From contig OZ024763.1 of NCBI GenBank assembly GCA_964016885.1, forward strand, positions 8,990,001 through 9,054,000: DNA of 64,000 bases, in the 5' to 3' direction. Source of the stretch: Eledone cirrhosa (lineage: Eukaryota). Position numbers and translations under genes: made by a program. The notes below the pieces were generated by a model that had not been told where the DNA came from, searched no databases, and saw only the letters and a program-made list of their open reading frames with translations. Positions 969 through 63,270 of this stretch are shown in pieces; the first letter of the stretch is position 1, and each line of letters starts with the position of its first letter.

Positions 969-24009
<23,041 letters not shown>

Positions 24010-28895: not shown

Positions 28896-31800
28896 AGAAA
28901 AGATGAATATCAAATGAAAGTGCTTTTATAAAGGAATTTATTAGGTATTTACATATGTTTCTGTAACAGACGGAATACCTATGTATCGCTGCTTGCGTAG
29001 TCATATAATGTTAGCGAGTACTCGATAGCAAATGTATAATCAGTTGTCACTTCTTCATAGATATTGGATAAATTGGAAAAAATCAGAAAAATTGAAGTAT
29101 TTATATTAGTTGTAAGAAAGGAAGAAGAGAAGGGATAGTATATGACAGATGGCAATTCAATTTACTGGTAAACAAGTATATAGAAGGTTTTTAATGAGAA
29201 TACAATGAGTATATGGCTTATTTTATCTAAATAAGAATTTTTGGTGCCTATTTTAATGTATATTTGACCAATTGAACAATGGACAGGGCTGGTCGTTTGG
29301 TGTAGTAGTATTAATACAGATATAAAGTGTCAATTAAGGAAGAGGGAGATTTTCACTGCTACTGTATAACAACAATGTTGGTAGCCTGCTGGTATATGCA
29401 TTAGGGAATTGAATTAAGAAATCTCATTTTATCTATAGCAGTTTATATTAAATGGTAAAGAATAGAAGAGTTGATAGAATTAAGACTAATAGAGAATGTT
29501 AATATGTATTTTGACAATCAAACGGAGATGGAGACAGGCGTTCAATCCTGGTAGCATTTGTAATATGAAAATGTAGATTTCAAGCGATTACAGTATAACG
29601 ATCGCTCTATTCTGTTCATCATCATCATCATCATCACCGTTTTACGTCCGTTCTTCCACGCTAGCATGGGTTAGACGGGTTGTCCTGTTGTGGGCAGTGT
29701 CTGGTCGGCTGACCATGCCTTGCTCATACAGGAACTGATCTGGCTTGATTTCTACAGCTGGATGCCCTTCCTAACACCAACCTCATTTACAGTGAGTGCT
29801 GGGTGCTTTTTCGTGGCGCCTACACGTCCACTTTACAGTGTGGGCTGGGTGCTTTTTTGCCGTGGCACCTCCACGACCACCTTGCGGTGGGGGGGGGGGG
29901 GGGGGGCATATTGTTTATATGCTTCAGCATGTATCCATGGGAGGTCGGGTACCCTGTATTACTGCGTGACGCCAGAAGTCACGGTCGTGTGTCATTGACT
30001 TTGAGAGGTGTAGTTGGGTAAGGTCGGCTTTTATCACCTCATCCCAAGTCATCTTGGGTCTCCCCACTCCGCGGTTTCCATCAACTTCTAGTGCTCTGCA
30101 CCTTTTTATGCAGCTGTCATCCTTCATACGCATCACATGTCCATACCAGCGTAACCGCCTCTCCTGCACGCAGCATTTGATTCCTCTTATGCTCAGTCTC
30201 TCTCTCAATTCATTTATGCTTTGTCGTTCACGTATATTACTGTTACACATCCATCGGAGCATGCAGGCTTCGTTTCTCTCTAATCTACGTAAGTCTTCCA
30301 CCTTCAGCGCCCAGGTCTCACTACCATGCAACATCGCTGTTCGGATACACGCATCATACAGTCTGCCTTTCATTCTGAGGGAGAAGCCTTTTGCAGCTAG
30401 CAGTGGTAGTAGTTCCCTAAACTTCTTCCATCCCGTTCTTACCCTAGTTATTGTACTTTCTGAGCACCCACCTCCGTTGCTAATTCGGTCACCTAGGTAG
30501 CAGAAGCTGTCTACTGTTTCTACAGGGCCCTCCCAGAGATTGGTGGTACTTGTTTCCTGTGGCTGTTTGCTTGCTGTTTCAGCACAGCTGCTGCATGTGA
30601 ATCCTACATTCTTAATTAAGCTTCCTGAGATCCCGCTACATCTCTTGTGTACCCATTGTTTGCATTTGGGGCAAAGAATGGAGTTCCTACCTACACCTTT
30701 CCTACATACTGAGCAAGGCCATTTCCCTGAGGGGATCTGGGTTCTGTTTTCTCGTCTACTTATAAGGACCTTAGTCTTTGTCATGTTGACTTTGAGGCCC
30801 TTTCTCTCTAGTCCCTGCTTCCAGGTTTGGAATTTATTCTCTAGTTCTACCATAGATTCAGCTATGAGTGCGAGGTCATCAGCATACAGGAGTTCCCATG
30901 GGCATCCGGTCTTAAACTCCTCCGTTATTGCCTGCAGGACTATGATGAACAGGAGAGGGCTAAGAACAGAGCCCTGGTGGACCCCAACCTGTACGCTAAA
31001 TTCCTCGCTATACTCATTGCCAATCCTAACTTTGCTGACTGCTCCCCTATACATGGCTTGAACCGCTTTCACAAGCCATTCATCTACTCCTAGTTTTCTA
31101 AGAGCCCACCAGATTACTGCACGTGGAACTCTGTCAAAGGCTTTCTCAAGGTCGACAAATGCCAAGTAGAGTGGCTTACTTTTAGCTAGGTACTTTTCCT
31201 GTAATTGCCTCACAAGGAAGAGCGCATCAGTGGTGCCTTTCCCTGGTACAAACCCAAATTGCATCTCGTCTATATTCACCCGGTCCCTAATCAGCTGTGC
31301 TATAACTCTTTCTGTTACTTTCATGACCTGGTCCATCAACTTTATACCTCTATAGTTTCCTCTATCTAGTGCATCCCCTTTACCTTTGTAGCAGTTGACA
31401 ATGATGCTACTGCACCAATCTTTTGGTATGGCCCCCTCTAGTATTACCTGGTTAACGATACGTGTGGTTATAGTGTGACCTACAGACCCAGATGCCTTCA
31501 GCATCTCGGCAGCTATACCCGATGGACCGGTTGCCTTCCCTATCTTCATATCTCTGATTGCCTTACTTACTACGCTGCCGCTGACTTGTACTGCTGGTCC
31601 CTCTATAGGGTCTACGTGGGGTAGGGTCTCTTCTTCCCATGCATTCTCCTCATTTAGTAATCTATCATAATGACTCTTCCATGCATCTTTCTTCTCAGCA
31701 CTTGTGAGGGCAAGCTCACCCTTATCATTCCGGATACACTTCTCTCCAATGACATCACAACTATCTCTGACACACTGCCTCGCAATCTTGAATACCTCCT

Positions 31801-34250
31801 GTTTCTGGTCCTCACGTTGTAAAACATGCTTGAATTTTCTATCCTCTGCTTCCCTCCTAGCTAAGTATACTTGTCGCCTAGCTTCCCTCTTGGTCTCTAT
31901 GTAATGTACCCTGCTCCCCCCGTTCTTCCATTCTTTCCATGCCTGTCTCTTGGCCTTGACTGCTTCATCTACCTTATTGTTCCACCACCAAGTCACTCTC
32001 CTCCTGCTTGAGGTCTTACTCCAGCCACAAACCTCATCCGTCGCCTCTAGTAAGTTATTTTTTAGGAACTCCCAGTTCTCTTCTACGTTAAATGTCTCTA
32101 TCTGTTCTTCTTTACTGTCGTAGGCGTTGAGTAAAATATCTTTAAATCTGTTACTGGTTGAGGGGACTTTCAGCTTCCAGATCTTTCTTCTCCAGGTTGG
32201 CCTCTGTTTCAGGGCTCGTCTAGTTCTGACCGTGAGGTCGCTGACAACTAAGCTATGTTGGGATGTACATTCCTCACTAGGGAAGGCTTTTGTGTTTACG
32301 ACCGTCCATCTGTCACGTCCTCTGATGAGGATAAAATCTAACTGACTAGAGTGCTCCCCTGATCTATAGGTGATCAGGTGGTTGTCGGGTTTTTTAAAGT
32401 TTGTGTTACATATCGACATGTCATTGGCGTCGCAGAATTCTAGAAGTCTGAATCCTTCCTCATTCCTTGTGCCAACTCCATGGCCTCCATGTACTCTATT
32501 GAAGCCGTCGCAGTGTTTACCTACGTGTCCGTTAAAATCTCCTGCAATGATTAGGAAGTCCTTGTCGTCTGTTAGAGCAGTAGTGTGTATTAGGGACTCG
32601 TAAAACCTATCCTTAAGTTCGTCTGGCAACCCCGATTGGGGTGCGTAAGCTGATATTATTGTGGTAATTGTCTTATTCAGGACTTATTCTGTTATTTAAT
32701 AAAATATTTTTGGATTTCATAATACAAAATAATTCCATATTACACAATTTACAAAATTCCTGTCCTTGTAAATATGCAGGGGCAACTGCTATTACATCCC
32801 ATTTTAGGTTAAATTGTTGGTTATTTTCGCGCAGCTGCCAAGCCTTGTCTGCGAGTGTTGTTACATAATGCTGGTTTTCATGTTTTATCGAGTAACAATG
32901 TCTATAAAGGCGAGATTTGAAGGAGGTAGCTGTAGACCCCACATAGTACCACTTCTGGCTACCCGATTCGATAGTACATTTGTATATGATGTCGCGTTCA
33001 AGACACTGATTGTTCAACGGACACATTCCTGGTTGGACACAGTTACAGTTATAATTTTGCGTTGTTGTATTAGCATGGATGGGTTGATGAGGTTGCTTAG
33101 GCAGGACGGAATGTTGTTTGTTGTTTTGTGATGTTATAGCCGATGTTTTACGTGTATTGTTATGTGTTGGAAGGCGTTTATACAACCGTTTTGCGTTAAG
33201 CTTTTTTATATGTTGTTCAATATTAGGGGCGGTTGAATATGAAAGTCGAATAGTGTTAGGGTTTAAGATTTTATTATATTTATGTGATGTTGGAAAGTGT
33301 TTTTTAACTAATCGAAAGAATTGTGAGGGTAGATTGGTTTTAATAGAGTTGTTATAGACCGGGTTGTACCATATATACTCTTTACATCGCCTTCTGTTTG
33401 GTGGTGTGCGACTATTAGTGTGTCTATTGCGGTAGTGTATGTATGGTGGTGATTCTATGCTATTTCTACCTCTATGAGATTTATTTTGGGTGTTTTGGTG
33501 ATCGTCGACTATATACTCTATATTATCTAGGTGTCCAGCCTTCCTAAGTGCAATCATCATAATATTGGGCATGTTCTTTGAAGGTTTGATGGTTGGATGA
33601 CAGGCGGGAGATTCTAAGGGAAATATTTCTAGGGATGGATTTAATTATAGAGGGTGGATGGTTAGAACCCGTATTTACATATTTAAGGTTCTCATTTAGT
33701 TTATGGAATGGTTTAATCGTTTCTGTATTGAGATTCAAAGTAACATCAAGGAAACTAACCTCTTTGAGGTTATATTCAAACGTAACATTTAATCCTAGTT
33801 CCTTAAAAAGCTTTCTAATATTTTTATGCATCCTTTCTAAATTCTGGTTATTCATATGCTTATAGATTCATATGCTCATAGATTAAAATAGGCACTCCCA
33901 AAAATTCTTATTTAGATAAAATAAGCCATATACTCATTGTATTCTCATTAAAAACCTTCTATATACTTGTTTACCAGTAAATTGAATTGCCATCTGTCAT
34001 ATACTATCCCCTCTCTTCTTCCTTTCTTACAACTAATATAAATACTCCAATTTTTCTGATTTTTTCCAATTTATCCAATATCTCTGAAGAAGTGACAACT
34101 GATTATACATTTGCTATCGAGTACTCGCTAACATTATATGATTACGCAAGCAGCGATACATAGGTATTCCGTCTGTTACAGAAACATATGTCAATACCTA
34201 ATAAATTCCTCTATAAAAGCACTTTCATTTTATATTCATCTTTTCTACAT
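28896..34250 (-). mobile_element. 5'-truncated Penelope-like element (RT C-terminus + GIY-YIG endonuclease) with ~360-bp inverted terminal segments, interrupted by an RTE LINE
   Basis: ORFs 33544-33855 (VSFLDVTLNL, YVNTGSNHPPSI) and 32685-33572 (IWYNPVY, IIYKCTI..YYVGST..FKSRLYRH, CKLCNME). The frame resumes at 29616-29542 (NRIERSLYC...*). 28896-29255 is the reverse complement of 33885-34248. Confidence 0.9.
29617..32684 (-). mobile_element. RTE-clade LINE, 5'-truncated in the endonuclease, ORF open for more than 900 aa
   Basis: ISAYAPQ, IAGDFNGHVG, LDFILI, NYRGIKL, FVDLEKAFDRVP, GVHQGSVLSP, LYADD, Cys-rich insert. (GAT)n tail. 9-bp TSD tattctgtt at 29608-29616 and 32685-32693. Confidence 0.95.
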
Positions 34251-43573: not shown

Positions 43574-44840
43574 ATGTCGTCATTCAGAGTGGGTCATCTT
43601 CCGGAGGGAGGCTTGTCAGGTATGTCACAATCTGCATTTTTAGGTCATTGATAGCTCTGTATTTCTGTGTCTGTGTATATATGTATGCATACACACATAC
43701 ATATGTGTGTGTGTGTGTATGCACATGTGTATATATATATATCATCTTCTAACCCCTTAACATTTACATTACTCTATATATACTATTGTATTTTATTACT
43801 CTATATATACTATAACATTTACATTACTCTATATATACTATTATATTTTCACAGTAAAGACTTTACCTCGCATATCTCACATAACATTTACATTACTCTA
43901 TAGATAGTATTGTATTTTATTACTCTATATAGACAGTCCTATGCGAGCAAGACAATCACTCTTGCCTCAAGTGGGAATACCCCCGTCCAAACCCATGCAA
44001 GCGTGGAACACGGACGTTAAACGTTGATGATGATGATGATGATGATGATACTATTATATTTTCACAGTAAAGGCTTTACCTCACATAATATCTCACATAA
44101 CATTTACATTACTCTATATATACTATTATATTTTTATGGTAAAGGCTTTACCTCACATAATATTAAATCTATGTTTTGATATTATTTATTTTGAGAACAA
44201 TACTTTAACATCAGTTTGAGTGGCCAGTTACAGCCGGTTTGAACAGAAAGGTATGAGATAATTCTGGCTGGATATGGAGCGGTTTAAATCCTATAAAATG
44301 TTAAACCACAGCCGACATCATCATCATCGTTTAACGTCTAACTTCTATGCTAGCATGGGTTAGACATGTACGAGCTTTTACTACAACTGGATTCACTTCC
44401 CCGATGTTTTACATTGGTTCTGTCGTGGTTACTGTTCTTTTGAAATTCATACAGTAAGCAACAGTGAATAAATTTTATAAAGATTTTATCTTCCATGTTA
44501 ATTACCGAAATAATGATGATGATGGTGGTGATGATGATGATTGTGATGGTGGTGGTAATGTTGATGGTGATGATGGTGATGATGATGGTGATGGTGATGA
44601 TGGTGATAGTGATGGTGATAACGGTGATGATGATAGTGGTGGTGATGGTGATGGTGGTGATGATGGTGATGGTGGTGATGATGGTGATGATGGTGGTGAT
44701 GATGGTGGTGATGATGGTGATAATGATGATGGTGGTGATGATGGTGATAATGATGATGATGATGGTGATGGTGATGATGGTGATGATGATGGTGATAATG
44801 ATGGTGATGGTGATAATGGTGGTGGTGGTGGTGGTGGCGG

Positions 44841-44871
<31 letters not shown>

Positions 44872-45610
44872 ATAATAGGCATTTGTTTGTTTTGTTTTTT
44901 TTCCAGGTGAAAGCGTGATGGACATGCGAAGATATGTTAGCGCTGATGACCTTTTAAATTTGTATGCAAGAGACAAACCATCAAAACAGAAGCAAATAAA
45001 TGGCAGAAAATATCGTACTTTACAACGTACATCTCAACATCTCCCTTCACCTGTACTCGACTCTCCAAAAATGAACATAGATTTATCACCATTATCTCCA
45101 TCAAGATCAACGGAGAATTGTGCCCTAAGCTCAGCTGTGAAAAGTGCCTACATTAGCAATGAATATCTGAGAATAAGAGACTTCATTAATCGAACAGATC
45201 CTGATGTCCTGCAGCAAATTCTCCTCAGAACTCTAGAGTATCGCAACTCAAAGGACATAATAGCACTGGGTATTATTTTCCCACGTAACCACTTCCCAAC
45301 ATACAACAACTACCACTGTGCACGTTGTCACAAACAGTACAACCCCATGGATAGGGAGCACTGCCTGTTACGACATTCAGTTCAATATGTTCGAAAAATT
45401 CAACAAGATGAGAGAGGATCAAATTTTTTCTGTCGCCTCTGTGGCAAAACTTTTTATCTGAAGAATGTTTTTATTTACACAGAGAATATAACAAATCAAA
45501 ATACTGGTTATTGTTTTATTGGACTGCACACCAATGATGCCCGCTTAGTTAGGTATGGGGCTGAGGCAAAAACCTGTGAAGAGTATGGGTGTGTAGAATT
45601 TTATGTGTGA
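43574..45610 (+). CDS. Two-exon gene, 249-aa uncharacterised protein with C-terminal Cys/His (putative zinc-binding) clusters
   Basis: Exon 43574-43619 (aaaATG, MSSFRVGHLPEGGLS, g/gtatgt) joins in phase 1 to exon 44907-45610 (tttttttccag acceptor). Total 750 nt. Motifs HCARCH..HCLLRH, FCRLCG, YCFIGLH, TCEEYGC. Exon 1 is less certain than exon 2. Confidence 0.75.
44510..44870. repeat. (GAT/GGT)n compound trinucleotide repeat, intronic
   Basis: Direct inspection. Similar triplet tracts at 3262-3445, 9525-9590 and 23460-23682. Confidence 0.9.
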
Positions 45611-48912: not shown

Positions 48913-50969
48913 TTATTTATATTTAATCAACAGCTACATAATTTAGTAGATAAATTATGTAATATTCATTCATTTATTCAAAGTAATCCAACTTATTTTA
49001 CAAATGGGATAAAAAAATATATTCAGGACACAGTCCCACACTCCTCCCTTTATTATATGGATTGGCAGTATCGGTAGAGGGTCGGACGCCATGCTTTCCA
49101 GCCTAGTTACGTCCCTTTACAATCTGAGTTCAAATCCCGCTGAGGTTGACTTTGCCTTTCATCCTTACGGGGTCGATAAAATAAAGTACCAGTAATGCAC
49201 TGAATAATTGCTGGCCTTGTGCCTAAAGTAGAAACAATTATTATTAAGGGCGGCGAATTGGCAGTATGGCTAGAGTGTCAGACACCATGCTTTGCAGCTT
49301 AGAGTTAAGGCTCTTTAACATTCTACGTTGAAATCCTGCCAAGGTTAGCTTTGCCTTTCGTCCTTATTGGGTTGACAAAATAAAGCACCAGTAATGCACT
49401 GGGGTAATTGCTGGCCTTGTACCAAAAGTAGAAACAATTATTATTATATTGCTAATAGTGAGAAATTACAAAGAGTTAATATAAAATCAAAAATATATTC
49501 CACAGTTTTGAATTCAGATTCTAATGATTTAGTCAGCTCGAAAGTAACACAGAGGAGACTGGGGTTAGCTGGACATATTCACTAACATTCAGAGTTGACA
49601 CTGGACTCAGTGCTCCAGTGGGAACCCCTAGGTGGACACACTAGAAGAGGGAGACCGAGGATGACATATATTGATACCCTAAGGAATGCCAAATTTGGGA
49701 ATGAATTCATATCTCCACAGAAAAATTGAAGCAGAGAAGTCTTTTATAGCTCGTTGGAAGCGTTTTGGAAAGCTGCAAGTGATGGGGTTAAATTTCTTCA
49801 AAGAAAGAATCTAATTTTGAAGATATAACTTGATTTCTTTTTCTGGCATTTGGTGTTGATGGCTCTGAGTCCCACAAAATCTGCCGATGGTTGATAGTCT
49901 GTTGTTGCGAACATCTGGACCCAGCAAAAACATAAAACCTCATTTATATTGTCATGTTATCAGGGCCGAATTTAGACATTAGGGAGGTGGAGGGGGGACT
50001 CATAAAAAAAAAAAGAATACACAGTAACCCCCACCCCATTTTTCACATCAAAGTTGGCTTGGCGCAAGTAATTGGAATTGAAAATTTATACATACAGGTA
50101 TTAAATGATAAAAAAAAAAAAGGGACATCCTCATTTTACATCCACTTTCCACACTGGCATGTGTTAGATGGGTTGTCACCATCCGAGATCAGACATATCA
50201 CCAATTGGCCCTCTCCTATAGAGATCTTTGATTAATAGACACAGACATGATGAAAGGCAAAGTTGATCATCGGCAGTAAATTTCTTAGTAAAATATAAAT
50301 TTTCAGTTAAAACTCAATAATTCAAAATATGTTCTGGTTTCCTCATTTTACATCCACTTTCCACACTGGCATGTGTTAGACGGGTTGTCACTGTCTGAGA
50401 TTAGACATATCTGAGTGACCCTCATCTTGCTCATACATTACATATTGTACATGGCCTCTATGGCTGGATGCCCTCCCTAATATGAAACACTTTACAGTCT
50501 TTACTGAGTGCATTGTTTAGGTATATTCTATGCAGGCACCAATAATAACAATTTACAAGGTGTACTGAGTACATTTTATCATGGCACTAGTACTAAAGAC
50601 GTCATCACATGCTCATTGTCAAAGGGATAAACTAAAAAGCCCAGCAGAGGGCACAGATAAATTGCTACAGCCGTCGTTGGTAGAGCCCAGGGCAATTGCC
50701 CCTTTTCCCCACCCCCATTAAATCCGGCCCTGCTCCATAGAATTACGGCTGCGGTGCCAGATAAAGTGATAGAAGGCACATCCCTTCCCCCAATACCAAC
50801 AACAAAAAGAAAAACAGCTGATCATCTTTAACAATATCGCCAATTGGCCCTCTCTATAGAGATCTTTGATTAATAGACACAGATATAATGAGAAGCAAAG
50901 TAAATTTCTTAGTAAAATATAATTCAGTTAAAATTCAATGATTCAAGATATGACCTGATTTTTCTTTTC

Positions 50970-52133
50970 TCAAACTTTTAATTTGTATTTATTTCTCGTT
51001 CCCTCGTTTCGAACGAAAATATCGAATGTACATTCAACTTCGTGAAACTCTTCAAAAAATTTGCGGTATTCATTCTTTGCTAATTCCGCAATAAAAGGAT
51101 TGGAATCGCTAGCATGATTAGGGCTCACAATCTTAGCATCCACGTTATCATCACCACCAGTCTCAGTCTTAGCATCCACGTTATCATCACCACCACCAGT
51201 CTCAGTCTTAGCATCCACGTTATCATCACCACCACCAGTCTCAGTCTTAGCATCCACGTTATCATCATCACCACCAGTCTCAGTCTTAGCATCCATGTTA
51301 TCATCACCACCACCAGTCTCAGTCTTAGCATCCACGTTATCATCACCACCAGTATCAATCTTAGCATCCACGTTATCAGCAGCATCACCAGTATCAATCT
51401 TAGCATCCACGTTCTCATCATCACCACCAGTATCCATCTTAGCATCCACGTTATCATCATCACCACCAGTAACAATCTTAGCATCCACGTTATCAGCATC
51501 ATCACCACCACCACCAATCTTATTACAACCACCATCAAAAACTATCAACATTGTTATTTTTGATTTAAGAACATTACTTGATATATTTTTTAAATAGTCT
51601 GCAATGTTTTCCTTTTCATCATTGTCCTTTACAAAAATAATATCAATGAAATCGAATTGATTCGTTTGTAGTGTATTAATTTTATTTTTCAAGCCTTTGG
51701 TAGACGAGAATATATAATCCACTTCATAATTGTCGTCGTTTTCGAAAATTTCGGTCTGTTCCACTTCATCCAAACCTTGGCAGATAAACATTTTCCTTTT
51801 CGGCAGCTTTTCTTCTACGTGCAGTTTTTTTTCTGTTTTTACTCCAGTTTCTTCCACAACTCGCTCCTCGTCTTTCATTGCTCTTTTGAAACGATTTAAT
51901 AATTTATCGTTGCCTGTAATGTCTAAAATGCGGATGAACTTTTTAGGCGAAACTCTTCTTCTTCCTAAAATATCCAACAGTGTCCTGATTCTGTTAGCTT
52001 CTATAGGTTTAGAATTGATGAGGTTGTAGTTGGAAGTTGTAATATATTCATCAGATATTAAATGATCCAGGACAGAATCGAGGGAAATAAGATCGTCCAC
52101 AATATCTGGACGTAGCTTCAGGTAAAGATCCAT
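50970..52133 (-). CDS. Intronless 387-aa CARD-domain protein with putative degenerate caspase fold and acidic tandem repeats
   Basis: ccaaaATGg start. LRPDIVDDLISLDSVLDHLISDEYIT...RIRTLLDILGRR..KKFIRIL fits CARD consensus. Open to TGA at 50970. Ten GGDDNVDAKTET-type repeats. The ORF track extends it to 52211, but those 26 aa are low-complexity. Confidence 0.8.
   Translation of the reverse strand: MDLYLKLRPDIVDDLISLDSVLDHLISDEYITTSNYNLINSKPIEANRIRTLLDILGRRRVSPKKFIRILDITGNDKLLNRFKRAMKDEERVVEETGVKTEKKLHVEEKLPKRKMFICQGLDEVEQTEIFENDDNYEVDYIFSSTKGLKNKINTLQTNQFDFIDIIFVKDNDEKENIADYLKNISSNVLKSKITMLIVFDGGCNKIGGGGDDADNVDAKIVTGGDDDNVDAKMDTGGDDENVDAKIDTGDAADNVDAKIDTGGDDNVDAKTETGGGDDNMDAKTETGGDDDNVDAKTETGGGDDNVDAKTETGGGDDNVDAKTETGGDDNVDAKIVSPNHASDSNPFIAELAKNEYRKFFEEFHEVECTFDIFVRNEGTRNKYKLKV
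51130..51515 (-). repeat. Coding minisatellite, ten 36-39-bp units
   Basis: cttagcatccacgttatcatcaccaccaccagtctcagt. All length variation is in multiples of 3. Confidence 0.9.
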
Positions 52134-54309
52134 TTTGGAGAGTAAATTACTTCCGCAAACGGTGTCAACCCAAAATAATACACGGCGAAAAAATAAAAAA
52201 TTATAATACATTTAAAAAAAAAAAATCATAAAACTCCGAGAAACTATTTATATTTATATTTGTTTCTACTTTAGGCACAAGGCCAGCAATTTATATTGTT
52301 TAACCGTTGGTCAATCAATGATTTTTTAAAAATTTTATTCAATAACTGTATGTATAACTGGGTAGAAAGTTTCAAATCTATAAAGATGGCTCTTCTTAAC
52401 ATATATTGTAACTTATTACTACATTATTAGTTTAGCTAGACCCGTGAGTTGAAGTGGCTCTTCCAGCGCGTCTTCTCTATTCTGTCCGCCGGGGCTGGGG
52501 GAGAGAGAACCCGATTATATTACGAATTCTGTTGAATAGTCTTAAATACTAGAAAGGTTATAAAACAATGTTGCAGTAACCATTTTGTACATAATATCTT
52601 TTTCTTTGCCCACTGAGAGGGTCGTGGGGTGGTAGAGTCCTCAAACACTCCTTCTAGCGGGTCATTCTAATCACATGTCTGTAATCTCTCAAATCTATTC
52701 AGTGATTCTTTCCTGAGACATTCTAACAACTATACACCAAAATATATGATCATCATATATTTGTGAGGTTCCTAGCAATAGTTAATTGTATTTACTATAT
52801 GTGTTTATATATTCAATATGAAAGAATTGTGAATAATTTGTAATGTTATTTATACAACCGTAAATAAAATGTTTTAAATCCATCTATACACTCTGCTATA
52901 GTATTGAATGCTAATATTGGTACCTTCTTCGGTAAACCACAAATCTACTGAATTACCTTATACATATATGAGCCCCGGCTTCAATCGGGGGTAATCTCAG
53001 TAGGTAAGGTACTCAATACATTAGTAGAATATAAACAAGAACTGTTTCATTCGAGTGAAACAGGTCTAGTACAGTAGAAGCCATTTCTATATAAAAATTA
53101 ATAAATGTACGTATATATACGGAGCTCGTTGAGACGAATTGTTGAGAGAAGGGACTTGACTGTAGCACACTCGTTTTAACTTTTGGGTCTCGAATAATCG
53201 TCCTCACCCACCCGCTTATTAATTTTTCAGATTTTTTTTCCAACAACTTAATAAATTTTGCTTATATCTATTTCTGGTGGAATTTTATTTTAACAATGAA
53301 TTTTTTTATACATGACAAAAAAAAACAAACATTACTAGAATTCTCATACGTTATAAAATAAAAAGGATGGGTTGGGGTCTCAATATGTAAACTAAACGAC
53401 TTGCTCTTTTTTTGTTTGTTTATTAATATCAACGGTGACAACATAGAAAAATTACTGATTTTCCAATCCCCCACCCTATTATTTGGGACCCGAGAGTAAA
53501 TATTTGTCATGCAATCAGCAACAGTCCGACAAATCAATATTTCTTGTTATTTGTGCGTATAGTTTAACCCTTTATTATTTCCATTACTCTATATTTACTG
53601 TTTTGAGAACAATACCATAACATTAGTATGAGCGGCCGGTTACAGCCGGTTTGAACAGAAAGAGGTGAGGGAATTCTGGCCGGATACAGCCGATATTTGC
53701 AGAATTCTGCGAACTATATTTCGACTGGTTTTGGCCAGAATTGTCTAACTTTTGAGTGTGATACCGTTTTCGGTTATCTTAACTAAAGATATACGGGACT
53801 CATTCCTTATTTATTCAGCTCTCTCTATCTCTTTCTTTCCCTCCTCTCTGTTAAAAACTACACCTTTTATCTAGAGAGAAAAGAAAGCAGACAAACAAAA
53901 GGTGTTTGAAAGGAAATGAAAGCAAATTGTAATAAGGAAAAAAAAAAAATTATTAAGGGGAAACCACTCTGGTCTGCACTAGAACATTTACCTTTATCTT
54001 ACATCACATTAACATAGCCTTAACATTAATTATATTTACGGGCAAATAGCCTGGGGGTCTATTTTACAGGGACCGGCAAAATAGCATATTCGTTAAAAAT
54101 AAATTAAGACTATATGAACATTTAAATGGCTTACCTGTAATTATATTGTGTTGATAGTTCCGTATTTTGAAGAAGATTATAAAGTACAACTTTCCCTGTA
54201 GCTACATCAAATTAATTCCCTTCTTTTGCCCCTTGAAGTCTAATTAGCAACAAAACACTTTCATTACGGACTGTTGTATTGGTCTAACTCTAAACCTTGC
54301 ATTATTTAG

Positions 54310-54492
54310 ATTGGCAGTATCGGTAGAGGGTCGGACGCCATGCTTTCCAGCATAGTTACGTCCCTTTACGATCTGAGTTCAAATCCCGCCGAGGTTGACT
54401 TTGCCTTTCATCCTTACGGGGTCGATAAAATAAAGTACCAGTAATGCACTGGGTAATTGCTGGCCTTGTGCCTAAAGTAGAAACAATTATTT
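54310..54492 (+). mobile_element. tRNA-derived SINE, well-preserved copy
   Basis: Near-identical to 49061-49245. A and B boxes present. Confidence 0.85.
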
Positions 54493-55393
54493 ATTTTGAA
54501 CCGGTGTAGTTGTTTAAGATTATCTGTGTAATATTCATTCCACCTTCTCTTGGTGGGGGCGTTAATTTAATATCTTTACACTAAAAATGTTAAAGAAATA
54601 CTGCCATAAATAAACCAAACCTTTTTCGTGTTTGACAAGCTGTGACAGTCTTTAGAAGTATCATTACATTGTTCAATCATGGTCCTATATCTCGTCACAG
54701 ACCATGAATTTACATTTATTTACTTGTTATTTTTAGATAAAGATAATTTTTGGTAGAAATTCTTTCTGGTGGTGAATTTGAAGAGTTGTTAGAACGTCGG
54801 ATAGAAGTCTTTGTCATATTCACACTGGTTCTCTGTGTTCAAATTCTGTTGGGGTAAACTTTGCCTTCCTTCCTCCTGTGGTCAACAAAAAATCAGACCC
54901 GTCAATTCTCCCCATCTAACGAGATCTCCCACCCACTTTTGGGTGGGTGAGAGAAATCTTCTCTTGTTAAAATGGGTATAGCTTTCATTATGTAAAATCT
55001 CCCCATTTTGCCTCATTTTTCACCGTTTTGGGGCACTTTTTTTCATGGTACTCCCTGTTTGGGTTTTTAGAGGTTGGCAGGTCTGCAAAAATTCACCAGT
55101 CCATTCCTCTTTAATACTCTCTCTCTTTCCTTACTCAAGAAGAAATTGGTCATATTCAGATGTGGTGCATTATGTAGTCAATCTGATGAGCTTGTTCACT
55201 GGATTGATAAGCTCTCAGAAGGCTGACCAGTTTCCTGAAATTATTGTTACAAATAGTTCATTTGTATCACAAAACTCCAACACACGCTCTCAGTTCGAAG
55301 ACTGACCGGTTGTGATGAAGAACTGACCACCTGGTCTTTCTCAGTTTGAAGACTGACCTATGTGATGAAAATCCAAATTCTACATGAGGTGAT

Positions 55394-56149: not shown

Positions 56150-56257
56150 ATATATATATTTATTAAAATAACAGATTAAAGTTTAAGCAAAGAATCGCTG
56201 CTTTCACCCTTAACGGGATCTTCTGAAACTAACAAAGTCAATCTGTGAACGCAGGAG

Positions 56258-58552
56258 ACAAGTACTTTGCATGTTCTACAACGCGAGGACCAAAAACGTG
56301 AGGTGTTCAGGATTGCTAGGCAATGTGTCAAAGAAAACCGTGATATTGTCGGGGAGAAGTGTGTCCGTAATGATGATGGTGTACTTGCCATCACTGATGC
56401 TGATAAGAAGGTAGCTTGGAAGTGTCACTACGAAAGGCTACTAAATGAGGAGAATAAATGGGAGAAAGACAGTCTCCCCCACATCGATCCAATAGAGGGA
56501 CCAGCAGTGCAAGTTGAAGGTAGTATAATAAGTAAGGCAATCAAAGATATGAAGATGGGCAAGGCGCCTGGGCCTTTGGAAATAGTTGCTGAAATGCTGA
56601 AAGCCTCTGGAATGGTGGGACACACTATGGTCACCCGGATAGTAAACCAAGTCATACAGAATGGGGTTGTTCCAAAGGACTGGCGTAGCAGCATCATCAT
56701 TAACTGCTACAAGGGTAAAGGAGATGCCCTAGATAGGGGAAACTATAGTGGCATTAAATTAATTGACCAGGTCATGAAGGTCACAGAAAAAGTAATAGCG
56801 CAACTAATCAGAGAGCGAACTGATCTAGATGAAATGCAGTTCGGGTTTGTGTCAGGTAAAAGTACCACAGACGCTCTTTTCCTTGTATGACAACTACCGG
56901 AGAAGTACCTAGCTAAAAGTAAACCCCTATACTTAGCTTTTGTTGACTTGGAAAAAGCCTTTGATAGAGTCCCACGCCCCATTATCAGGTGGGCTCTCAG
57001 AAAACTAGGTGTTGATGAATGGCTTGTGAGAGCTATACAAGCCTTGTATAAAGAAACAGTCAGCAAGGTTAGAATTAACAACGAATATAGTGAAGAGTTT
57101 AGTGTAAAAGTTGGTGTTCATCAGGGCTCTGTCCTTAGCCCCCTCCTATTTATTATTGCACTTCAGGCTATAACAGAGGAGTTCAAGACCGGCTGCCCAT
57201 GGGAACTTCTATACGCAGATGATCTAACGCTCATAGCTGAATCAATGGCTGAACTAGAGAAGAAATTCCAAACATGGAAGCATGGCCTAGAATCAAAAGG
57301 CCTTAAAATTAACTTGTCTAAGACTAAAGTTCTAGTATGTAGGAAGGAAAATAGGGCACTGGTCCCATCTGGGAAATGGCCATGCTCATTGTGTAGGAAA
57401 GGAGTAGGCAGAAATTCCATTTTATGTCCCAAATGCAAAGTATGGGTGCATATAAGATGAAGTGGGATCACAGGTAAGCTAACTAAGAACAGATTTTATA
57501 TGTGGCCAGTGCTCAGGTGCAATAAGTAGTAGCAAGTGCTCACAGGATACTAGCTCATTCCATTGCCCAGATGGTTCTATAGAAATAGTGGACACCCTCC
57601 ATTACCTGGGTGACAAAATCAGCAGTGGTGGAGGGTGCTCTGAAAGTACAGTATCTAGAGTCAGAATGAGATGGAAAAAGTTCAGAGAGCTTATACCACT
57701 ATTGGCTGCTAAAGGTTTCTCTCTAAAAATGTATGATGCCTGCATACGAACAGCAATGTTACATGGCAGTGAGACTTGGGCATTGTGTGCAGAGGATCTA
57801 CGCAGACTGGAGAGGAATGAAGCTTGCATGCTCCGTTGGATGTGTAATAGTAATATACGTGAACGGCAAAGCATCAATGAACTATGTGAGAAAGTGGGAA
57901 TAAAAGGGATCAGATGCTGTTTACTTGAGAGAAGACTACGTTGGTATGGTCACGTGATGTGCATGAAAGACGACAGCTGTATAAAAAAGTGTAGGGCGAT
58001 CAAAATAGACAGTAGCTACGGAGTAGGCAGACCCAGAAAAATCTGGGACGACTTCATAAATTCCGACCTTACACACTTACACCTCTCCAAGACAATGTCA
58101 CTGGACCGAGATCTTTGGTGCTACGCAGTAATACAGAAGACCCGCCTTGCCTAAGTACAAAGCGAAACCTACAGTCAGTAGGCACCTCTTAATTAAACAT
58201 ACACCCCCATCCCACTACCCCTACTCCATCCTTCCACTCCCACCAACACCACCCTTTCTCTGTAAAGTTATGTTGGTACCACATCATCCAGTCCTAAATA
58301 AATGAGGTCGTGTATGTGTCACGACAAAAAAACACACAGTCCACGCTGTAATGTGGCCATGTAGGTAACACGGTAAAAAGCTCCCAGTCCACACTGTAAA
58401 CGTGGTTGGTGTTAGGAAGGGCATTCAGCCATAGAAAATCTGTCAGCCAGCCCTACACGAGCAAGACAACCAATCTTGCCTCAAGTGGGACAATTCCCAT
58501 CTAAACCCATGTTAGCGTGGAAGATAGACGTTAAACGATGATGATGATGATG
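56258..58552 (+). mobile_element. RTE LINE copy, 5'-truncated, with stops and frameshift
   Basis: ORFs 56267-56890, 56948-57460 and 57588-58154 are homologous to 29924-32629. 3' UTR and (GAT)n tail present. Confidence 0.92.
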
Positions 58553-61569: not shown

Positions 61570-61795
61570 AGCGACAGTCGATCGACTTTCGTCAAATCGG
61601 ACCGAGGGAACAATGTTTCCGTTGGTCTTTCCAATAGCTAGTACTCTCTATCGGTCGCAACTCCAGGTAAAAGGAGCAACGTGAAATAAAGTGTCTTGCT
61701 CAAGGACATAACGCATCGCCCGGTCCGGGAATCGAACTTACAACCTCACGATTAGGAATCCAATTCTCTAACCACTCGGCCACACGCCTTCACTA
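61570..61795 (-). mobile_element. tRNA-derived CORE-like SINE
   Basis: Reverse strand: gtggccgagtggttagag...gttcgattccc...gtccttgagcaagacactttatttcac. Partial copy at 58770-58870. Confidence 0.75.
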
Positions 61796-61825
61796 TATAT
61801 ATATATTATATATATTATATATATA

Positions 61826-61863
<38 letters not shown>

Positions 61864-61916
61864 CATATATATATATATTACATATATATATATATATTAC
61901 ATATATATATATATTA

Positions 61917-63270
61917 CAAGACTAAAGTTCTAGTTTGTAGGAAAGAAAATAAGGCGGCGGTCCCATCTGGGAAATGGCCATGCTCAGTGTGTAGGAAAGG
62001 CGTAGGTAGAAACTCCATTTTATGTCCCAAATGCAAAGTATGGGTGCATAAAAGATGTAGTGGGATCACAGGTAAGCTAACTAAGAACATAGATTTTACA
62101 TGTGGCCGGTGCTCTGGTGCAATAAGTAGCAGCAAGTGCCCACAAAATACTAGCTCCTTCAACTGCGCAGAGGGTTCTATAGAAATAGTGGACAGCTTCC
62201 GTTATCTGGGTGACAAAATCAGCAGTGGGGGAGGGTGCTCTGAAAGTACAGTAGCTAGAGTCAGAACTGGATGGAAAAAGTTCAGAGAGCTTATACCACT
62301 ATTAGCCGCTAGAGGGTTCTCCCTAAAAATGAAAGGCAGGTTATACGATGCCTGCATACGAACAGCAATGCTGCATGGCAGTGAGACCTGGGCATTGTGT
62401 GCAGAGGATATACGCAGACTAGAGATGAACGAAGCTTGCATGCTCCGCTGGATGTGCAATAGTAATATACGTGAACGGCAAAGCATAAACGAACTAAGGA
62501 AAAAATTAGAAATAAGAGGGATCAGATGTTGTTTACTCGAGAGAAGGCTACGTTGGTACGGTCACGTGATGCGCATGAAAGACAGCTGTATAACAAAGTG
62601 CAGGGCAATAAAGATAGACGGTAGCCACGGAGTAGGCAGACCCAGAAAAACATGGGACGAGCTGATAAATTCCGACCTCACACGCTTACACCTCTCCAAG
62701 ACAATGTCACTGGACCGAGACCTTTGGCGGTACTCAGTAATAGAGAAGACCCGCCTTACCTAAATACAAAGTAAAAACCTACTACAGTCAGTAGGCATCT
62801 CTATCAAAACACACCCCCGTCCCACCACCTCCACCCCACCCACACCGCCCCTTTCAATGTAAAGTTATGTTGGTCCCACAACATCCAGGCCGAAACAAAT
62901 GAGATCGTGTAGGTGTCACGACAAAAAACACAGTCCACGCTGTAAATGTGGCCGTGTAGGCAACACGGTAAAAACCTCCCAGCCCCACACTGTAAATGTG
63001 GTTGGTGTTAGGAAGGGCATCCAGCTGTAGAAAACCCGCCAGACAGTCCACGCTGTAATGTGGCCGTGTAGGCAACACGGTAAAAACCTCCCAGCCCCAC
63101 ACTGTAAATGTGGTTGGTGTTAGGAAGGGCATCCAACTGTAGAAAACCTGCCAGACAGTCCTATGCGAGCAAGACAACCACTCTTGCCTCAAGTGGGAAA
63201 ACCCCCGTCCAAACCCATGCAAGCGTGGAACACGGACGCTAAACCTGATGATGATGATGATGATGATGAT
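61917..63270 (+). mobile_element. RTE LINE 3' fragment with internally duplicated 3' UTR
   Basis: ORF 61987-62763 is homologous to the RTE C-terminus. A ~100-bp UTR segment is duplicated in 62930-63160. (GAT)n tail. Confidence 0.92.

Follow-up and report, generated by a model that had tools for sequence, protein, structure and literature searches.

A predicted CARD pseudo-caspase of Eledone cirrhosa with a tandemly repeated linker motif, and its unannotated octopod family

Pseudo-caspases, caspase-fold proteins that have lost catalysis, are already known. Human c-FLIP(L) (CFLAR), which carries tandem death effector domains (DEDs), acts by heterodimerising and is cleaved in its linker (PMC7586951; this and all later articles are cited from excerpts). 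Among invertebrates, Caenorhabditis elegans csp-3 lacks an active site and both csp-2 and csp-3 reportedly inhibit apoptosis (PMC3591282), and Aedes CASPS18 is described as a decoy enhancing CASPS19 (PMC4840389), so that precedents exist for both inhibition and enhancement. Here we describe a gene of Eledone cirrhosa, found in a stretch of 64,000 nucleotides (contig OZ024763.1 of assembly GCA_964016885.1, positions 8,990,001 to 9,054,000; hereafter the window), whose product, P0001, is predicted from a modelled paralogue to be a CARD fused to a minimal caspase fold without the catalytic His. Like CSP-2, CSP-3 and CASPS18, P0001 is a lineage-specific caspase paralogue, for which we assume an independent origin; unlike the P0001 family, those proteins are not described in the excerpts cited as having a CARD fusion, domains in tandem or a linker built of repeats. 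From c-FLIP(L) it differs in having a single CARD as prodomain instead of the tandem DEDs that mark c-FLIP orthologues, in a domain reduced to about 165 amino acids (208 residues are resolved in c-FLIP(L)), in relatives that carry up to 6 such domains in tandem, and in a repeat-expanded linker; identity between c-FLIP(L) and the octopod domain is 10-11%, and we claim no orthology. What is new here is the fusion to a CARD, a domain so strongly reduced, its occurrence in tandem and a linker that has been expanded twice.

The gene is a single open reading frame (ORF) of 387 codons without a stop (window 52133-50970, reverse strand; Table 1), and its start Met at 52133 stands in an invariant column across the family alignments. 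Because this one frame reaches from the invariant Met to the C-terminal strand of the family, the coding region can be read without an intron, as a first-pass annotation made from the sequence alone had proposed. The N-terminal CARD named there is likewise confirmed, with a Pfam PF00619 match (E 8.8e-8) of 32.5 bits against a curated cut-off of 23.9, and the domain has the six-helix bundle of the death fold; nothing besides the CARD was significant in the Pfam search of P0001.

Table 1. Features of the P0001 gene, in window coordinates
Feature	Positions	Strand	Basis
Single ORF, 387 aa (P0001): CARD and pseudo-caspase domain with expanded linker	50970..52133	-	Translation
CARD, residues ~1-87	51873..52133	-	Pfam PF00619
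Charged spacer, residues ~88-110	51804..51872	-	Sequence; equivalent stretch low-confidence in paralogue model
Large-subunit-like half, residues ~111-200: four strands and three helices, without His	51534..51803	-	Homology to P0026 and predicted fold
39/36-bp minisatellite, ten [DE]N[VM]D/AK units, residues ~210-336, inter-subunit linker position	51126..51507	-	Repeat detection, motif count
Small-subunit-like half, residues ~345-387: a strand, a helix, a second short helix and the terminal strand	50973..51101	-	Family-profile score, hhalign

To place P0001 among known proteins, we searched 1.84 billion representatives by phmmer with residues 1-206 as the query (E<=0.001). Six of the 12 matches are family members, namely P0002 and P0009 (O. 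vulgaris), P0003 (O. sinensis), P0004 (O. bimaculoides), P0006 (Argonauta hians) and P0010, and the other six have only the CARD in common; P0009 and P0010 were matched via the CARD alone, and their later domains were assigned from alignments with weak scores. A profile search added six further O. vulgaris/sinensis proteins. The family is real and unannotated, all named members being listed solely as uncharacterised or hypothetical. Its domain of about 165 residues occurs in 1, 2, 3 or 6 tandem copies, and the six-copy record (P0021), which has no CARD, could be an incomplete gene model. The first ~200 residues of P0001 show 34-38% identity with the Octopus members; the family includes the octopod LOC118768007/8/9 and LOC106872585 and the Argonauta Ahia01_000496500, with homology in the C-terminal half too. 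A tree of 14 proteins gave P0001 a long branch but no firm position, and none of the others is clearly its one-to-one orthologue. Seven chains from O. sinensis and O. vulgaris (P0021, P0002, P0003, P0022-P0025) contain 2-6 near-identical dead caspase-like domains each, from which single-chain pseudo-dimers are possible, and the neighbouring LOC numbers 118768007-9 suggest a tandem cluster. Two tandem-CARD proteins, P0005 (O. vulgaris) and P0008, have CARDs resembling that of P0001 (39% and 32%) and are, by this resemblance, candidate adaptors or CARD donors.

The caspase fold is predicted through the modelled paralogue P0026, which shows an alpha/beta core with large- and small-half elements in caspase order and shares 34% identity with P0001 over residues 1-198 of the latter. 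Beyond the array, a family profile from which P0001 was left out gives its residues 323-386 a score of 16.1 bits, compared with a maximum of 4.4 among 300 shuffles, and hhalign recovers the small-subunit-like half with an E value of 8e-5 and a probability of 61%. That the segment 3' of the array scores on the family profile indicates that the array interrupts one domain. The compact caspase fold suspected earlier is thus supported by the model of P0026 and the homology of both halves of P0001, and the array does lie in the inter-subunit linker position assigned to it, with a half of the domain on either side. The Peptidase_C14 profile found no match in P0001 at E<=1, nor in the 12 homology hits at E<=0.1, and the family profile matched PDB sequences only over CARD-range stretches. 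The family is a candidate group of caspase regulators missed by sequence-profile annotation, and its domain illustrates the extent to which a caspase fold can be reduced.

The catalytic motifs are missing as well. P0001 has His only at 24, 105, 340 and 364, none of them in the large-subunit half; residues 106 to 339 are therefore free of His, and the loss of the catalytic His proposed in the first-pass annotation holds. No [ST]HG occurs in any of the 13 family proteins, no His stands at the strand-3 end in the 26 ends that were located (of 27 domains, one of which was dropped by a filter), and Q-x-C is absent from P0001 and appears once in the 13 proteins, at a C-terminus. Strand 4 of P0001 ends LIVFDG. 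We take Asp170 and Phe199 to stand at the caspase His and Cys positions, in a register drawn from caspase motifs and not from residue-level superposition. Cys203, in 'GGC', is shared by none of 10 aligned relatives and is unlikely to be the catalytic Cys. P0009 of O. vulgaris has a Cys at the inferred catalytic-Cys position (residues 211-218), yet no His, and most Octopus members keep a Cys immediately before the inferred His position. The P0026 segment aligned to PFIAEL is modelled as a strand (244-250) that leads directly into a helix (251-263); PFIAEL is thus probably the first small-subunit strand, and its equation with the helix of GSWFIQ.L appears to be off by one element. In the model, the substrate-binding loop that would follow this strand looks deleted. 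With the SHG and QACxG motifs gone and the binding loop apparently deleted, the domain very probably neither acts as a protease nor binds substrate in the manner of a caspase. In these respects P0001 departs from the CARD initiator caspases (caspase-2, caspase-9, CED-3, Dronc and the lophotrochozoan caspase-Y), which it resembles in prodomain: it lacks the His-Cys dyad motifs, Pfam Peptidase_C14 is undetected in it, and its substrate-binding loops seem to be missing. A death-fold prodomain joined to a caspase fold without the dyad, as predicted for P0001, is the layout of pseudo-caspase regulators of the c-FLIP(L) kind.

The linker array has a period of 39 bp (window 51131-51507; 9.8 copies, 91% matches) and encodes exactly ten motifs, 8 DNVD-A, 1 ENVD-A and 1 DNMD-A, each followed by Lys, with P1 Asp residues from 217 to 332 at a spacing of 12-13 amino acids; the motif count, the variants and the flanking strings given in the first-pass annotation all recur in the translation. 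Each amino acid is encoded by a single codon, save Val at two different positions, and the array is thus a recent amplification of one unit. In the second domain of Argonauta P0006 a single copy of the unit (GGGDDNIDARVV) occupies the equivalent place, and the strand and helix that come after it are those of P0001. The array derives from amplification of one ancestral linker motif, present as a single copy in Argonauta. The ten sites originally proposed therefore exist as motifs, but as products of one amplified motif they count as one site. The nine complete units differ by about nine substitutions, all of which change an amino acid; the Asn, P1-Asp, Ala and Lys codons are substitution-free in all nine, and the two changes within the motif are conservative. 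This pattern is a weak hint of constraint, given so few events.

DEVD is the consensus of executioner caspases, and Val at P2 an apoptotic preference (PMC8940215). When the unit was shuffled 20,000 times and each product was read as a tandem repeat, DxxD-[AGS] appeared in 23% and DxVD-[AGS] in 2.7%. In a unit this acidic (net charge -3 to -4) a generic DxxD site is accordingly nothing remarkable, while the DxVD-small form departs only moderately from the ordinary. For a looser motif, D-[AST]-[KR]-x-[VI], there are 20 occurrences, spread over 10 of the 13 proteins and always in this linker, where 1.3 are expected; because this motif was chosen with the sequences already in view and the proteins share ancestry, the count is descriptive. 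P0009, P0010 and P0026 are without it, and in most relatives P4 is not Asp. Outside the six-domain member, relatives have 0-3 linker motifs per protein, and ten in one linker are found only in P0001. In the terminal domain of P0023-P0026 (O. vulgaris/sinensis) the same linker contains a different unit, 17 residues long and repeated 2-3 times; this expansion is independent, and three of these four proteins have D-S-R-P-V within it.

Sequencing runs from two samples cover the locus. X1 and X2 come from one sample, possibly the source of the assembly, and X4 from a second; all three are read as genomic DNA because their contigs span gene and flanks alike, and a further run, X5, made by restriction-site-associated DNA (RAD) sequencing, gives hardly any coverage of the gene. 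The depth of X1 over the gene (6.5-7.0) equals that of the unique flanks, which suggests a single-copy locus. X4 differs from the P0001 ORF at four positions, all amino-acid changing (G147S, E173V, N183K and N381K), and is free of stops and frameshifts wherever it covers the ORF. Since only 20-27% of the possible changes in the ORF are synonymous, four nonsynonymous differences of four show neither purifying nor positive selection. No contig spans the array. A 3-base in-frame insertion within it (window 51338) is found in contigs of all three runs at roughly single-copy depth, and may reflect an allele, a unit left out of the assembly or a contig placed wrongly.

For the function of P0001 we tentatively prefer, at somewhat less than even confidence, a decoy of the cFLIP type that is recruited by its CARD to a caspase-activating platform and whose linker, with its tenfold-copied site, would be cut by the partner caspase. 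The CARD would take P0001 to such a platform, where the dead domain would fill the place of a procaspase or form a pair with a caspase that is active; the partner could then cut the linker at NVD/A, as the fit of the motif suggests, and extra copies would provide a faster-cut, locally concentrated competing substrate that damps or delays it. Because molluscs are reported to be without APAF-1 and to retain CRADD and FADD (PMC11463336), a partner of the CRADD or caspase-2 type would be likelier. The main rival, which we consider rather unlikely, accepts the CARD pseudo-caspase and holds that the CARD and the dead domain suffice, the array being a neutral, slippage-prone GAT/GGT minisatellite in an insertion-tolerant surface loop. 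The uniform codons that mark a recent amplification, the separate 17-residue expansion in the same linker of P0023-P0026, the low confidence of the linker in the model, a window rich in tandem repeats (132 rows) and the frequency of DxxD-small in shuffled units all agree with it. The amplified unit is centred, however, on the sole linker motif common to Argonauta and other members, and the invariance of the core codons in the nine units speaks weakly against neutrality as well. A more far-reaching proposal, which we regard as improbable, is that the octopod family of CARD-linked, reduced dead caspases scales by tandem duplication, both of whole domains (up to 6 per chain) and of the cut site (ten copies in P0001 and a separate expansion in O. 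vulgaris/sinensis), so that repeat number would be a heritable dial on the caspase threshold and the linker a tethered poly-substrate sponge.

Three further readings depart more widely from a decoy. The array could fold as a beta-solenoid, a Ca2+-bound RTX-like roll or a curli-like stack, and serve in oligomerisation or binding rather than as a substrate. This is very unlikely: the model is of low confidence overall, the tool itself warns that repeats yield high Z through a common arrangement, each unit has a net charge of -3 to -4, the unit length varies between 12 and 13, and the relatives are without such a module. Slightly less credible still is that cleavage exposes Ala-starting N-termini (AKIV, AKTE, AKID, AKMD) that bind the BIR domains of inhibitor of apoptosis proteins (IAPs), by which caspase activity would be amplified and not damped. 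BIR domains require Ala at position 1, with a slight BIR3 preference for Lys/Arg at position 2 and a BIR2 preference for Val/Ile/Ala/Gly at position 4 (PMC3760131); all ten predicted cuts would expose Ala-Lys, and AKIV would stand at the start of the C-terminal fragment, where caspase-9 has ATPF (PMC3760131). Nevertheless, position 4 is Asp or Glu in 8 of the 10 termini and suits BIR2 in 2, the preferred Pro/Ala/Arg at position 3 is found in none, and most relatives would expose Thr or Ser. We give a similarly slight chance to the gene being a paralogue in decay or without expression, or to the caspase fold of the family having been repurposed outside caspase signalling. The four amino-acid changes in the second sample, the long branch without a one-to-one orthologue, and an upstream TATA-like word that sits in the tail of a dispersed repeat are in its favor; against it, the ORF is intact despite only 34-38% identity with relatives, the second sample has no disruption where covered, and four of four is unremarkable under neutrality given the small synonymous share. 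The linker of P0001 offers a natural test of whether the multiplication of cleavage sites tunes a protease cascade. A literature search found nothing under the gene identifiers of five family members and nothing on this octopod family, on an expansion of inactive caspases in cephalopods or on a repeat-expanded caspase linker, in a corpus that mostly excludes subscription journals and with supplements of PMC11463336 and PMC7836458 that could list such sequences.

The surroundings of the gene are themselves repetitive. A high-copy dispersed repeat of about 200 bp, presumably SINE-like (a short interspersed nuclear element), lies at 49033-49446, 52251-52291 and 54282-54495, and an inverted fragment of its tail about 120 bp upstream of the ATG is the source of the TATA-like word. 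The 3' flank of the gene (50128-50961) contains short local duplications of 72, 48 and 39 bp. Other tandem arrays are a 2.3-kb TGG-rich one (13288-15631) and a GAT/GGT array (44513-44869) with the same triplets as the repeat spacer of P0001. On the forward strand, 44907-45610 is probably the last exon of a convergent gene, preceded by a pyrimidine tract and AG at 44905-44906; its product has a Cys/His-rich C-terminus and no Pfam match at E<=0.01. An open frame of 264 codons (11643-12437, forward), probably an exon, shows a weak Pfam match below the cut-off to the Hedgehog N-terminal domain (E 1.7e-4). Further long frames are found at 19218-21986, 56249-58154, 61756-62763 and 18654-19217 on the forward strand and at 29924-32683, 32673-33644 and 6495-7022 on the reverse strand, and these seem to resemble reverse transcriptases of long interspersed nuclear elements (LINEs; two of ~920 codons), a piece of a Penelope-like endonuclease and mariner remnants.
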